Source: Paludibacteraceae bacterium
GTDB lineage: Bacteria; Bacteroidota; Bacteroidia; Bacteroidales; Paludibacteraceae
Length of the DNA stretch: 64,000 bases
Assembly: GCA_017454915.1 (NCBI GenBank)
Contig: JAFTCC010000064.1
Coordinates: 91,322 to 155,321, forward strand
Reading direction: 5' to 3'
The translations under genes were made by a program, and so were the position numbers. Below the pieces are notes generated by a model, which had not been told where the DNA came from, did not search any database, and saw only the letters and a list, made by a program, of their open reading frames with translations. The number at the start of each line of letters is the position of its first letter. Position 1 is the stretch's first letter. Positions 5,008-17,166 of the stretch are shown here, piece after piece.

Positions 5008-5895
5008 TCAAGTCTTACATAATTTACATTTAACCAAAACAATATAGAAAAACAGCAAGGAGAACGATATTAAATAATACATAGCAGTGTTGTGAACAAA
5101 GTCTTTTAACACAACGATAGGCACCATGTGCCATAAATATACATTTAAGCTATGTCTGCCTATGTAACATAGAACATTATTGTGGGGCAATAAATCTCTC
5201 TTAATAGAGGGATATAGAAAAAAAACAATTATTGATAATAACAATAAAAAAGAAATCAGTTCGCTACGAAAAAAAGAATATTTTTTAACTAACAACAACA
5301 CTGGGAAATATAATAATAACACCAGTCTATATGCATGTTTTAATAATCGATCTATATCTAAATGATTTTTTAAATATAATCCCAAAGCGAAATACGGCAG
5401 TTGTTTACAATCGCACCATCTCGGCAATGAGTTTGGCGGGCAAACTTTTAACAAAACTATCCACAATAATGATAAAAACACCAAAATCAAGTATGGCTGT
5501 TTTTTTGTCCTAAAAAAAACATATACTGTTAAAACATACGAAAACAATGTCGGGACATACCACAAATGATACCATGGATAATATAACACTTCAAATGCCT
5601 TACTCCATGTAGGATCAAACATAATAAGATACATGAAAAATACTACAAAAGCTATCAACCACATTTTTATCATTCTATTCCAATACTTAAAAAACAGGTC
5701 ACGCATAGTCATATGTGACAATTTTTCTACATCAATCAAGTAGCCACTCACAAACATAAAGAGAGGCATGTGAAATGAATAGATGACATAGCGAAAAACA
5801 TTTTGCTCTAGTGAGCCTAAAAGTACATGTCCAATTATTACACATAGTATAAGAAAACCCTTCACAGTATCAATTGAATAATTCCTACAACTCAT
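5008..5895 (-). CDS. membrane O-acyltransferase (acyltransferase family 3)
   Basis: 295 aa and polytopic. N-terminal VKGFLILCVIIGHV motif. Strongly AT-rich. Confidence 0.7.
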   Translation of the reverse strand: MSCRNYSIDTVKGFLILCVIIGHVLLGSLEQNVFRYVIYSFHMPLFMFVSGYLIDVEKLSHMTMRDLFFKYWNRMIKMWLIAFVVFFMYLIMFDPTWSKAFEVLYYPWYHLWYVPTLFSYVLTVYVFFRTKKQPYLILVFLSLLWIVLLKVCPPNSLPRWCDCKQLPYFALGLYLKNHLDIDRLLKHAYRLVLLLYFPVLLLVKKYSFFRSELISFLLLLSIIVFFLYPSIKRDLLPHNNVLCYIGRHSLNVYLWHMVPIVVLKDFVHNTAMYYLISFSLLFFYIVLVKCKLCKT

Positions 5896-5943
5896 AACAG
5901 ATTAAATAAATTTTTGTTCGCTTGGAGAAAAAAAGTCACACTA

Positions 5944-6426
5944 TTACCATGTTAGGGATAAATTGTGCATTTTTAATATTTCTTCTACAAAACATCTAAA
6001 CACACCATCACCACCTCTTATGGGCAATACTCTGCAAACTATCTCTTTAATGGATTCAGGGGCAGAACACGGCACTGCCGAAAAACCCACATTCATTAGC
6101 AATTCTAAATCTGGCACATCGTCACCGATATAGGCAATCTCATCAAGAGTTATATTCATCTGAGCACAAATCGATTTTGCCATCTCTAATTTATTTTTAA
6201 CTCCTTGATAGAGCATGTCAACATGCAATTTTTGCGCTCTTTTTTCAACAATTCTTGTATTCTCGCCAGTTAACACGCCAACCATAATGCCATATTTGTG
6301 CGCCAACAATACACCTGCGCTGTCGTAGGTATTGAACTTTTTTAGCTCATTGCCATTCTGGTCGTAATACATTCCGCCGTCAGTCCAGACTCCGTCAATA
6401 TCTGTAAGTATTAGTTTAGGCAACAT
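5944..6426 (-). CDS. KdsC-family HAD phosphatase (nonulosonate/octulosonate-phosphate phosphatase)
   Basis: 160 aa. [13 protein letters not shown] (DxDGV motif I), GDDVPDL motif IV. Same size and pattern as KDO-8-P/KDN-9-P phosphatases. Confidence 0.8.
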
Positions 6427-6427
6427 A

Positions 6428-14398: not shown

Positions 14399-14417
14399 CG
14401 TAATAAAGCAATATAGT

Positions 14418-15008
14418 ATGTCAAACGGCAATGACATAATACTTCTTGGCGGTGGAGGACACTGCAAATCGGTGATTGACGCGGCAGAAAGCGTCGGCTA
14501 CAACATCTTGGGCATACTCGACAAACCCGAGTTGGTCGGCACGCGCATTCTGAACTACGAAATAATAGGCACCGACGACGATATTCCACACTATGCGGAT
14601 AAGGCTCAATTTGTGATTACCGTCGGGCAAATCAAGTCACCGGCCATACGTCAAAAACTTGCACAACTCGTTGAGCGCGCCGGTGGGCGTTTTGCAACAG
14701 TCATTGCCAGCGACGCATACGTGAGCAAATACGCACACATTGGCGAAGGCACCGTAGTGTTACACAAAGCCATGGTCAACGCTGACGCGCATATCGGCAG
14801 ACACTGCATCATCAACACCATGGCTAACATCGAGCACGACGTTAAAATAGGTGATTTCTGCCACATCTCCACAGGGGCGATGGTCAACGGAGGTTGTATC
14901 ATAGAAGACGAAACATTTGTAGGGAGCGGAGCCGTGCTGCACCAATGTGCGCAGATTAGCAAAAGCACAATCGTGCCTGCGGGCACTATAGTTAGAAAAA
15001 ACGCATGA
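14418..15008 (+). CDS. neuD: NeuD/PglD-family sugar N/O-acetyltransferase (left-handed beta-helix)
   Basis: ILLGGGGHCKSVID N-terminus and C-terminal hexapeptide repeats. The ATG at 14418 is preferred because the ORF-track start at 14328 overlaps the previous gene. Confidence 0.75.
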   Translation: MSNGNDIILLGGGGHCKSVIDAAESVGYNILGILDKPELVGTRILNYEIIGTDDDIPHYADKAQFVITVGQIKSPAIRQKLAQLVERAGGRFATVIASDAYVSKYAHIGEGTVVLHKAMVNADAHIGRHCIINTMANIEHDVKIGDFCHISTGAMVNGGCIIEDETFVGSGAVLHQCAQISKSTIVPAGTIVRKNA

Positions 15009-16006
15009 AACACTCGATAGTCATAGCAGAGGCTGGAGTCAACCACAATGGCTCTATCGATATGGCAAAACGGCTCATTGAAGCGGCGGCTGAAGCTAAA
15101 GTCGATTATGTCAAATTCCAGACTTTTAAGGCAGAAAAACTTGTGACAAAAGATGCCGTGCAAGCCGAATATCAACACAAAAATTCGGAGGCGGAAACGC
15201 AATACGCAATGCTGAAAAAATTGCAGCTGTCAGAAGAACAGCACAAAGAACTCATTATGCATTGCAAACGATGCGGGGTGAAGTTCCTATCCACAGCATT
15301 TGACTTTGACAGCATCACTTTTTTGCACGATCTGAAACTCAGACTCTGGAAGATTCCTTCTGGTGAAATTACCAATTATCCCTATCTTAAGCGTATCGCA
15401 CAATATGGCGAACCTGTCATCCTGTCAACAGGCATGAGCACTATTGACGACATAACAGCAGCAATTAAAGCGCTGTGCATCAACGGATTAAAAAAGGAGC
15501 AAATAACACTGCTTCATTGCACGACCCAGTACCCCACCCCCATGCAGGACGTGAACCTGCGCGCCATGCTGACATTGCGCGATGAGTTTGGCGTAAGCGT
15601 TGGTTACTCAGACCATACCCGCGGCATTGAAGTGCCTATAGCTGCTGTTGCGCTCGGGGCAGAGGTTATCGAGAAACATTTCACACTTGACCGTTCGCTT
15701 CCCGGTCCCGACCACAAGGCCTCATTGGAACCCGATGAGTTAAAGGCTATGGTTGATGCAATACGAAACATCGAACAGGCTATGGGGGATGGCGTTAAAC
15801 GCGTGTCAGAATCGGAAAAAGAAAACATCGCTGTCGCACGGAAAAGTATTGTAGCCGCAAAAAAAATACAAAAGGGAGAAGTGCTCACCGAAGATAACAT
15901 AACCGTCAAGCGACCAGGAACCGGCATCTCGCCAATGCGCTGGGAAGAAATTATTGGAACAAAAGCCATACGGGATTTTGCAGTTGACGAACTGATAGAA
16001 CTATGA
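15005..16006 (+). CDS. neuB: N-acylneuraminate/legionaminate synthase (NeuB family)
   Basis: IAEAGVNHNGS, YSDHT, and a C-terminal SAF domain (VKRPGTGISP). Confidence 0.85.
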   Translation: MKHSIVIAEAGVNHNGSIDMAKRLIEAAAEAKVDYVKFQTFKAEKLVTKDAVQAEYQHKNSEAETQYAMLKKLQLSEEQHKELIMHCKRCGVKFLSTAFDFDSITFLHDLKLRLWKIPSGEITNYPYLKRIAQYGEPVILSTGMSTIDDITAAIKALCINGLKKEQITLLHCTTQYPTPMQDVNLRAMLTLRDEFGVSVGYSDHTRGIEVPIAAVALGAEVIEKHFTLDRSLPGPDHKASLEPDELKAMVDAIRNIEQAMGDGVKRVSESEKENIAVARKSIVAAKKIQKGEVLTEDNITVKRPGTGISPMRWEEIIGTKAIRDFAVDELIEL

Positions 16007-17166
16007 GGAAAATTTGCGTCATAACAGGCACACGTGCCGAATTCGGACTGCTTAGCGGACTGATGCGACTTATTCAAGCCTCAAATCAATGCCGTCTTCA
16101 AGTGATAGCAACCAACATGCACCTGTCGGAGCGCTACGGCAACACTTATAAGGAAATAGAAAACAGCGGATTTTCAATAGATTATAAGGTTCCCATCCTT
16201 GATGATAACACACCTGACGACTCCACTTCAACAATATCCGCCATGGCGCGCGCTTTGACTGGATTCGCAAATGCATACGATAGTTTGCAGCCTGATTTAC
16301 TTGTGGTCTTGGGCGACAGGTTCGAGATGCTGTCCGTGGCAGAAGCAGCACTCATTAAACAAATACCGATAGCGCATATTCATGGCGGAGAACTTACTTA
16401 TGGAGCATACGATGACGCTATCCGTCACTCAATCACAAAGATGAGCCATCTGCACTTCACCGCAACCGAGGAATACAGGAAACGTGTCATTCAGATGGGC
16501 GAGCAGCCCGACAAGGTTTTCTATGTGGGTGCGCTCGGAGTGGAAAACATAAAAAAAAAGGAACTGCTGTCAAAGGCAGAACTCGAGGCTTCAATTGATT
16601 TCACTGTTGACGAAAAGACCCTGCTTGTAACATACCACCCGGTAACATTGTCATGCTCTAATCCTCTGGAAGACATCAATGCGCTACTCTGCGCCCTGGA
16701 CGAGCATCCAGAACTGCGGGTCATTTTCACCATGCCCAACTCCGATACCGGCGGGCAACTCATTGCCGATGCAATATACAATTACGCCAAGCGTAACGCG
16801 CAACGGATAAGAGCCTTCAAGTCGCTGGGAATGCGCCGATACCTGTCTGTGATGAAATATGCAGGCGCCGTAGTAGGTAACTCGTCAAGCGGATTACTGG
16901 AAACGCCATCGTTCGGAATACCAACGCTTAACATAGGAAATAGGCAACAAGGGCGCATCGCTGCAGAGAGCGTACACAACTGCGGAACATCGGAAAAAGA
17001 AATCTCCGAAGGGTTAAAACATATTCTGTCTGCAGATTTCCGCAAAATGTGCAAAACTGTGCAAAACCCATACGAAAAAGCCGACACGGCGGAAAGCATT
17101 TTCAAGGTCATTTCAACAATTCCGTTAGACAATCTCATCCAAAAGCATTTTTATGATTTAGGATGA
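16003..17166 (+). CDS. neuC: hydrolysing UDP/GDP-N-acetylhexosamine 2-epimerase (NeuC/LegG family)
   Basis: KICVITGTRAEFGLL, VLGDRFE and HIHGGE are NeuC-type epimerase motifs. Confidence 0.85.
   Translation: MRKICVITGTRAEFGLLSGLMRLIQASNQCRLQVIATNMHLSERYGNTYKEIENSGFSIDYKVPILDDNTPDDSTSTISAMARALTGFANAYDSLQPDLLVVLGDRFEMLSVAEAALIKQIPIAHIHGGELTYGAYDDAIRHSITKMSHLHFTATEEYRKRVIQMGEQPDKVFYVGALGVENIKKKELLSKAELEASIDFTVDEKTLLVTYHPVTLSCSNPLEDINALLCALDEHPELRVIFTMPNSDTGGQLIADAIYNYAKRNAQRIRAFKSLGMRRYLSVMKYAGAVVGNSSSGLLETPSFGIPTLNIGNRQQGRIAAESVHNCGTSEKEISEGLKHILSADFRKMCKTVQNPYEKADTAESIFKVISTIPLDNLIQKHFYDLG

Follow-up and report, generated by a model that had tools for sequence, protein, structure and literature searches.

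The 64,000-nucleotide stretch analysed here (the window), from contig JAFTCC010000064.1 of a gut-type Paludibacteraceae bacterium, carries two nonulosonic acid biosynthesis operons arranged as mirror images around a candidate switch, a 945-bp segment (9358-10302) bounded by 32-nt inverted repeats. The segment encodes an Mpi-family serine DNA invertase and contains an outward-facing promoter, and each operon includes one of two paralogous sialyltransferase-like genes, ST_L on the left and ST_R on the right. The arrangement is best read as a Hin-like two-state toggle in which one promoter would be swapped between an operon for 2-keto-3-deoxynononic acid (KDN) and an operon for a legionaminic acid (Leg) or neuraminic acid (Neu) type of sugar, a reading to which we assign a probability of about 0.55. 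The 51% identity of the transferase paralogs, the uniqueness of the inverted repeats and the recurrence of the mirrored layout in independent assemblies, including its retention in full in the sister strains L006 and L020 (99% identity), together argue at the level of sequence that this layout is no chance pattern.

The candidate invertible segment and its promoter

The candidate switch consists of four features, listed here in window coordinates.

9358..9389, no strand: left inverted repeat (IR-L), 32 nt, 94% complementary to 10271-10302
9556..10161, plus strand: Mpi-family serine DNA invertase, 201 aa, inside the segment (NCBIfam NF009949, 307.8 bits against 272; Pfam Resolvase, 110 bits, plus helix-turn-helix)
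10235..10270, plus strand: outward-facing Bacteroidales-type promoter (TTG at 10240-10242, 20-nt spacer, -7 box TAACTTTG at 10263-10270)
10271..10302, no strand: right inverted repeat (IR-R), 32 nt, partner of IR-L

The 21-nt core of the repeats (compare TGACCTGCGAAAAAGGGTCG) has no other copy in the 64 kb at up to three mismatches (0.00 expected), and each repeat arm, an imperfect dyad around a central AA, contains GACC-N10-GGTC, as expected of a candidate binding site for a serine invertase dimer. A protein identical to the invertase is held at NCBI as an Mpi-family recombinase from a metagenome-assembled genome (MAG) of Paludibacteraceae (Bacteroidales). The sigma-70 consensus is inappropriate for Bacteroidales and the scan with it was set aside; TAACTTTG is the sole perfect TAnnTTTG box on either strand of 9332-10328, abuts IR-R and points right. 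The 21-mer CAAATTATTCATAACTTTGCA from this promoter sits immediately upstream of ordinary genes, such as a glyA-like open reading frame (ORF), in other Bacteroidales MAGs, and for this reason the TAACTTTG region is taken as a real promoter, identified at the level of the consensus. Genome contigs scanned with the 21-mer yielded four ordinary promoters but not another switch, and a scan of metagenome contigs for promoter plus repeat returned 0 matches. Two single, unpaired matches to the repeat core in viral contigs were dismissed as chance.

The spacing of the segment is symmetric, with IR-R ending 26 nt before the neuA ATG and IR-L starting 26 nt beyond the ST_L GTG, so that a separate promoter for the left operon would not fit in. 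In the observed orientation, the promoter at the 3′ end of the invertase gene would read through IR-R into the right operon, which runs in the order NeuA, PtmE-like, ST_R, dehydratase, PglD-like, NeuB and NeuC. Inversion between the repeats would bring the same promoter to within 26 nt plus one repeat of the start codon of ST_L and hence upstream of the otherwise promoterless series of ST_L, CMP-KDN synthetase, KDN-9-phosphate synthase, KDN-9-phosphate phosphatase and acyltransferase. The predicted left junction of the flipped state would be composed of the left flank, the repeat and CAAAGTTATGAATAATTTG, reading ...AATTTTTACTTCACCTATAACAAACGACCCTTTTTCGCAGGTCAATGCAAAGTTATGAATAATTTG..., and the cell would switch from a Leg/Neu-type nonulosonic acid to KDN.

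The same module is found at a related locus, L007, where the divergent glycan operons around it are different ones: one begins with genes for a FUT8-like glycosyltransferase (GT) and Wzt, the other with genes for an ST_L-type transferase and an HMGL-like enzyme. The Mpi-family invertase of L007 is 83% identical to that of the window and the promoter is conserved, and the L007 repeats (CGACCCTTTTTTGTAGGTCA and TGACCTACAAAAAAGGGTCG) have changed in a matching way in both arms, a sign of selection for repeat pairing. The ST_L-type gene of L007 lies beyond the promoter-side repeat and its outer flank GGGTCGTTTGTTATA, whereas in the window the same flank is promoter-distal; relative to the ST_L-type flank the segment therefore has opposite orientations in the two loci, and the junction predicted for the flipped state exists in nature.

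Read outward, the repeat arms (10274-10302 and 9367-9386) resemble terminators, with a short hairpin followed by a T-run. A transcript from the switch promoter would begin within the hairpin and one reading through from the invertase gene would include it completely, so that the repeats may double as insulators.

Two biosynthetic cassettes

The ORF map places all 12 genes of the original prediction where it had put them and on the same strands, and Pfam and NCBIfam profile matches agree with the family proposed for each. The left arm is a tight minus-strand operon with intergenic gaps of 7, -4, 1 and 48 nt, and comprises five genes, given here in the order of transcription.

8240..9331, minus strand: ST_L, sialyltransferase-like GT-B protein, 363 aa, GTG start, first left-arm gene (PF07388, 37.4 bits against a gathering threshold (GA) of 23.3)
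7468..8232, minus strand: cytidylyltransferase, putative CMP-KDN synthetase (Pfam CTP_transf_3, 75 bits)
6428..7471, minus strand: NeuB-family synthase, putative KDN-9-phosphate synthase (Pfam NeuB, 206 bits, plus SAF domain)
5944..6426, minus strand: KDN-9-phosphate phosphatase, HAD-IIIA, C0 type (NCBIfam equivalog NF058599, 238.2 bits against a cutoff of 180)
5008..5895, minus strand: Acyl_transf_3 membrane O-acyltransferase, last left-arm gene (PF01757, 92.9 bits; GC content about 30%)

The phosphatase, previously described as KdsC-type, is more specifically a KDN-9-phosphate phosphatase: besides its equivalog match it scores 189.8 bits to the structures 3E81/3E8M in the PDB and about 88 bits to KdsC structures, and by sequence it is the equivalog-level counterpart of the KDN-9-phosphate phosphatase of Bacteroides thetaiotaomicron. 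The neighbouring synthase scores under both the NeuB and the PseI equivalog cutoffs, and the adjacent phosphatase points to mannose-6-phosphate as its probable substrate. The arm includes a dedicated CMP-sugar synthetase gene, and none of its genes encodes an epimerase or other enzyme forming N-acetylmannosamine (ManNAc). The phosphatase equivalog, the divergent synthase and cytidylyltransferase and the missing ManNAc-forming enzyme fit a self-sufficient route from mannose-6-phosphate via KDN-9-phosphate and KDN to CMP-KDN, with the substrate specificities putative. The KDN pathway of B. thetaiotaomicron (BT1713) is alike in its phosphatase, in the adjacent NeuB-family synthase and cytidylyltransferase and in having no ManNAc-forming enzyme; here, in contrast, a dedicated sialyltransferase-like gene accompanies the pathway, and a putative phase switch would control both.

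The left arm has a GC content of 30-41%, below the 45-50% of the right arm and the approximately 50% of flanking housekeeping genes, and this contrast (window 5000-9300 against 10300-17200) suggests separate horizontal origins of the two cassettes. The O-acyltransferase gene at the end of the arm is strain-variable: in the sister strain L006, 99% identical, most of this 295-aa protein is gone together with the gene at 3626-4990 (plus strand), leaving a 145-bp remnant. The gene at 3626-4990 encodes an AAA_14/DUF4143 ATPase that matches the PADLOC candidate defence family PDC-S01 with 552 bits. At the other end of the arm, a near-perfect tandem duplication of 20 nt (TAGTAAGCTTATGATTGATT / TAGTAAGTTTATGATTGATT, window 8232-8271) takes in the stop codon of ST_L as well as the cytidylyltransferase start.

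The right arm is a plus-strand operon as tight as the left, and a terminator-like hairpin follows its last gene.

10329..11015, plus strand: NeuA/LegF-like CMP-nonulosonate synthetase, first right-arm gene (CTP_transf_3, 81 bits; PseF-like, 170 bits, under the cutoff)
11026..12075, plus strand: CBS-domain sugar-1-phosphate nucleotidyltransferase, PtmE-like (Pfam CBS plus NTP_transferase, 139 bits)
12105..13190, plus strand: ST_R, sialyltransferase-like GT-B protein, 361 aa (PF07388, A-2_8-polyST, 38.0 bits against GA 23.3)
13193..14398, plus strand: NDP-HexNAc 4,6-dehydratase of the 3PVZ type, 401 aa (PDB 3PVZ full-length, 323 bits; Pfam Polysacc_synt_2)
14418..15008, plus strand: NeuD/PglD-family acetyltransferase (TIGR03570, 188 bits against 160.8; PglD_N plus Hexapep)
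15005..16006, plus strand: NeuB/LegI-type nonulosonate synthase (TIGR03569, 519 bits against 399.65)
16003..17166, plus strand: NeuC/LegG-type hydrolysing 2-epimerase, last right-arm gene (TIGR03568, 465 bits against 235.9)
17216..17248, plus strand: terminator-like hairpin at the end of the right arm (13-bp stem, then a T-run)

Two starts in this list are corrected relative to the original prediction, which otherwise holds for the families and positions of the right arm: gene calls on identical public contigs make 13193 the most likely start of the dehydratase gene and 14418 that of the NeuD-like gene. The TIGR03568 and TIGR03569 models presumably also pick up Leg enzymes. The hydrolysing 2-epimerase, the synthase and the CMP-synthetase could make up a set of the N-acetylneuraminic acid (Neu5Ac) type, but the PtmE-like and dehydratase genes point to the Leg type, and by sequence the PtmE-like, PglD-like and 3PVZ-type dehydratase genes mark a legionaminic-type cassette. 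The arm shares with the Leg/Ptm clusters of Campylobacter jejuni a gene set of PtmE-like protein, 4,6-dehydratase, PglD-like N-acetyltransferase, NeuC-like and NeuB-like enzymes and CMP-synthetase, and homologues of the PtmE-like gene occur together with NeuA and an ST-like gene in many metagenome loci.

The difference from the legionaminic clusters lies in the aminotransferase step, which is missing here. No DegT aminotransferase was found in the window by phmmer with the DegT protein of the related locus L023 against all six frames at E <= 10, and the 99%-identical sister strain likewise has none. Only 19 nt separate the dehydratase and acetyltransferase genes, the exact place occupied by the DegT gene in L023, and DegT homologues are present in seven related loci (L023, L043, L036, L029, L027, L041 and L038). 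Because this C4 aminotransferase (LegC) is missing, the right arm is no complete legionaminic route, and its product would be explained in one of three ways: an aminotransferase is borrowed from elsewhere in the genome, Neu5Ac is made, or the product is a sugar not yet described. The Wzt-ST-dehydratase-DegT-PglD-NeuB-NeuC cluster of L023 also contains an insert (4361-7239) with an AAA_21/AAA_15 ATPase and several small ORFs, one of them DUF6864, which looks like a small defence-type island within a glycan operon.

As the original prediction had it, a NeuB-family synthase, a cytidylyltransferase and a sialyltransferase-like protein are encoded separately in each arm, and the arms do not form one pathway. 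The two synthases share only 32% identity, and the left cytidylyltransferase has no significant similarity to the right-arm NeuA, which makes the arms different pathways rather than duplicates. The proposed self-sufficiency of both arms is borne out on the left, where the putative KDN-9-phosphate route is complete, but not on the right, which is without the DegT aminotransferase.

Paralogous transferases

ST_L and ST_R share 51% identity (E = 7e-135). Their motifs E120-D121-G122, H243-P244 and S292-S293 (EDG, HP and SS) are invariant in close relatives, and across 70 diverse members H243 is invariant and G122, P244 and S292 are conserved in at least 90%. Motifs of these three kinds are common to bacterial sialyltransferase families (PMC7439481). 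The AlphaFold2 model of ST_R, of medium confidence (pLDDT 70) and built on an alignment of 7 sequences, since a word-indexed search with the 70-sequence alignment gave one usable extra, has its best PDB matches in 5WCN and 5WC6 (E = 3.5e-9, TM 0.53), followed by generic GT-B folds. The entry 5WCN is the polysialyltransferase of Mannheimia haemolytica, to which ST_R is about 15% identical in the structural alignment, and a direct phmmer search of ST_R against the PDB yielded nothing even at E = 10. The PF07388 scores above GA, the invariant motifs and the GT-B model speak against the possibility, raised with the original prediction, that the paralogs are not glycosyltransferases; they point to glycosyltransferase-like proteins of a sialyltransferase-like GT-B type, with transfer of a CMP-activated nonulosonic acid a putative function assigned from genomic context.

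The close family of these transferases comprises four 90% clusters among 5.8 billion proteins, and the wider family, from a profile search, 189 representatives at 50% clustering. In the metagenome loci with 8 kb of upstream flank, 9 of 9 have the transferase relative following NeuA, PtmE-like, NeuB, NeuC and NeuD genes, and nonulosonic acid genes adjoin transferase relatives in 12 of 21 loci overall. Directly ahead of the transferase gene, both L008 and L023 have a gene for a Wzt-type ABC ATPase. The GT38 polysialyltransferases (NeuS/SiaD and the M. haemolytica enzyme) are alike in PF07388 membership, D/E-D/E-G and HP motifs, GT-B fold and nearby ABC exporter. The window proteins differ from them in the low structural-alignment identity, in the lack of a sequence-level PDB match and in belonging to a small family tied to Leg-type rather than Neu5Ac clusters.

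The two transferases would probably place different sugars on the same acceptor, which is most likely a polysaccharide exported by the nearby ABC transporter.

1151-2413: Wzt/TagH-type ABC exporter gene, near the arms

The original prediction spoke of a terminal sugar, which is an assumption: a polymer is equally possible, because the transferases belong to a polysialyltransferase Pfam family and the Wzt/TagH-type exporter is encoded nearby.

Conservation is uneven along the transferases. The paralogs are 70% identical over residues 1-120 and 39% identical over residues 201-320, and ST_L is about 85% identical to the L007 transferase (P0003) over the N-terminal ~200 aa but about 30-35% identical over the C-terminal part. 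The high identity of the N-domain and the low identity of the C-domain suggest a conserved acceptor side combined with a swapped, CMP-sugar-binding donor side. Downstream of the transferase gene in L007, where a NeuB-type synthase might stand, a 499-aa HMGL-like protein (pyruvate aldolase/carboxyltransferase fold; 7859-9358) hints at yet another donor sugar for the family.

A short patch within the conserved part is more alike between the paralogs than its surroundings.

9015..9109, minus strand: homogenised patch in ST_L, partner of 12327-12421 in ST_R
12327..12421, plus strand: homogenised patch in ST_R, partner of 9015-9109 in ST_L

This patch (approximately 75-95 nt, gene nt 226-317) has 90-93% DNA identity between the paralogs, as over gene nt 241-300, against about 70% in the flanks, and only 33-73% identity to the L007 and L008 orthologues. 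As it is alike in both paralogs and not in the orthologues, sequence appears to have been exchanged between the inverted genes. The patch holds a dyad, AAACGA-N8-TCGTTT, with a loose resemblance to the repeat core AAACGACCCTTTTTCG. A role for the patch as a second invertase site was rejected, as the repeat core is unmatched there within 3 mismatches, and a gene-conversion tract fits better.

Orientation, competing explanations and known systems

Several observations weigh against the two-state toggle. The promoter faces right in all 9 displayed public records of the locus and its sister strains, with no flipped copy among them, and all 4 records of the L007-type locus likewise have a single orientation; for the former, the survey covered consensus contigs found through the exact invertase, NeuA and ST_L proteins, with four further long similar contigs left out. 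The consensus contigs of each locus show one orientation, and inversion at this locus is inferred rather than seen, as is the mutually exclusive expression of the two operons. Contig ends near the switch (10304, 10288, 10370 and 9707) lie off the positions predicted for an inversion fork and were rejected as a signal of one, as a T8 run, strain mixtures or paralog repeats fit better. In strain L020 both repeat arms carry an additional mismatch, one per arm, which lowers their complementarity. Inside the segment, weaker 5-of-6 promoter-like boxes face left, and perfect TAnnTTTG boxes occur on the minus strand in left-arm genes at 8675, 8039, 7857, 7696 and 7353; from such weak or internal boxes, some left-arm transcription may be independent of the switch. 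The low GC content of the left arm (30-41% against 45-50%) could mark a recently acquired, little-used island, and the aminotransferase of the right arm is missing. The phase-variable choice of sugar put forward by the original prediction accordingly stands in part, with the tight operons, the sole consensus promoter in the segment and the 26-nt spacing on its side but no flipped copy in the consensus contigs.

The substitutions private to L020 (around 2040-2060 and 2945-2965) change CGCAGG to CACAGG in IR-R and TTGACC to TAGACC in IR-L.

The same facts bear on three other explanations. The segment could be an ON/OFF switch for the right operon only, with the left KDN operon either independent or a silent acquired remnant and the mirror symmetry accidental. 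The rightward promoter in every assembly, the foreign-looking GC content of the left arm, the perfect minus-strand boxes within its genes and the decay of its end in L006 are in line with such an arrangement, which is nevertheless unlikely: the gap of 26 nt from IR-L to the ST_L start is too short for a promoter, no internal box could drive ST_L itself, all five left-arm ORFs are intact with four of them 99% conserved in L006, and the repeat junction of L007 does bring the promoter into an ST_L-type gene. Less probable still is a fossil switch, in which the invertase would be inactive here or would act on distant sites, as does Mpi of Bacteroides fragilis, with only the right arm transcribed. 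Enzymes of the Mpi family do act in trans on many sites (review PMC12632263), the flipped copy is absent from every contig examined and the L020 repeats have drifted by one base per arm; on the other hand, the repeats of the window are still 94% complementary around an intact, equivalog-level invertase, those of L007 have changed in step, and an intact promoterless left arm would be difficult to account for if it never came to be expressed.

A third explanation involves homologous recombination between the 5′ ends of the transferase genes, similar to that of Campylobacter fetus sapA, which would invert about 3.3 kb, carry along the promoter together with the genes for the invertase, NeuA and the PtmE-like protein in one block, and generate chimeric transferases. 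The transferase genes form an inverted repeat of 316 nt, whose 95-nt core is about 93% identical and includes 35 nt without a mismatch, and the patch common to the paralogs but not to orthologues elsewhere indicates that sequence has been exchanged. We consider this inversion very improbable, however, as the homology is short, ST_L matches its L007 orthologue on both sides of the patch, which argues against a net exchange, and the rearranged gene order is found in no contig. In addition, the break of a Logan contig at the patch is an effect of the 35-nt repeat at k = 31, and a comparison allowing 3 mismatches gives no match of the patch to the invertase site.

The two-state toggle has counterparts for each of its parts in known systems. 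In Salmonella, Hin produces the alternative phenotype indirectly, via the FljA repressor, and no operon lies on the other side of the segment. The Hin/hix group (Hin, Gin, Cin and Pin) is alike in its segment of about 1 kb with an internal serine invertase gene and short inverted repeats, in an outward promoter at the 3′ end of the invertase gene that reads through the repeat into an operon, and in repeat arms that are imperfect dyads with a central AA. Here, by contrast with Hin, a second complete operon abuts the other repeat, and the promoter itself would be swapped. At C. fetus sapA, homologous recombination in conserved 5′ coding regions swaps structural proteins. That system likewise has a single promoter on an invertible segment between opposed homologous genes with conserved 5′ ends, and only one gene is expressed at a time, as proposed here; it differs in that the window has dedicated 32-nt sites and a serine invertase, and whole biosynthetic operons would be exchanged. 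Strains of Tannerella forsythia carry either pseudaminic acid (Pse) or Leg, a choice fixed per strain, whereas the arrangement in the window would let a single cell line change its sugar through DNA inversion. Mpi of B. fragilis is described as one global invertase that flips the promoters of seven capsular polysaccharide loci ON or OFF (PMC12632263). The window invertase is alike in recombinase family, at equivalog level, and the systems share bacterial order, promoter type and a surface glycan as target, but here the invertase gene lies inside its own putative element, which stands between two alternative operons rather than upstream of one.

Surface nonulosonic acids govern recognition by host lectins, antibodies, complement and phages. 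To our knowledge, their variation is known in two modes, strain-level differences in gene content, such as Pse versus Leg in Tannerella, and ON/OFF slipped-strand switches in sialyltransferase genes. Literature searches on invertible promoters or DNA inversion in connection with nonulosonic, legionaminic or KDN terms turned up no such switch. The parts are all known, namely an Mpi/Hin-type invertase, a Bacteroidales invertible promoter and KDN and Leg cassettes, and their combination with paralogous transferases into a direct choice between two sugars was not found reported. If one promoter inversion exchanged acidic sugars within a clone, it would amount to an antigenic switch that is compact and has two states; the bacterial KDN pathway would also gain a transferase of its own and a biological setting. 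It is a tentative proposal, with odds somewhat short of even, that KDN and a Leg/Neu-type sugar alternate on one acceptor through the paralogous transferases and that the invertase-promoter-transferase unit is a portable module, pairing with other glycan operons elsewhere as in L007, by which ABC-exported polysaccharides in general could have their cap or polymer exchanged between two states. The small and hitherto uncharacterised transferase family, with its N-domain kept and C-domain swapped, is also a candidate source of Leg- and KDN-transferases for glycoengineering.

A scan of the whole 64-kb window with Rfam gave zero matches. Paralogs of the window invertase with 77-80% identity (P0161, P0158 and P0156) are encoded in the loci L044, L045, L046, L047, L049 and L054, where they adjoin several gene fragments with TaqI_C domains on both strands. 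The lengths of the TaqI_C ORFs vary among contigs with identical flanks (262/307, 135/164 and 105/146 aa), and these sister Mpi paralogs, from the same bacterial family, appear to shuffle specificity genes of restriction-modification systems by active inversion, a point in favour of the toggle.

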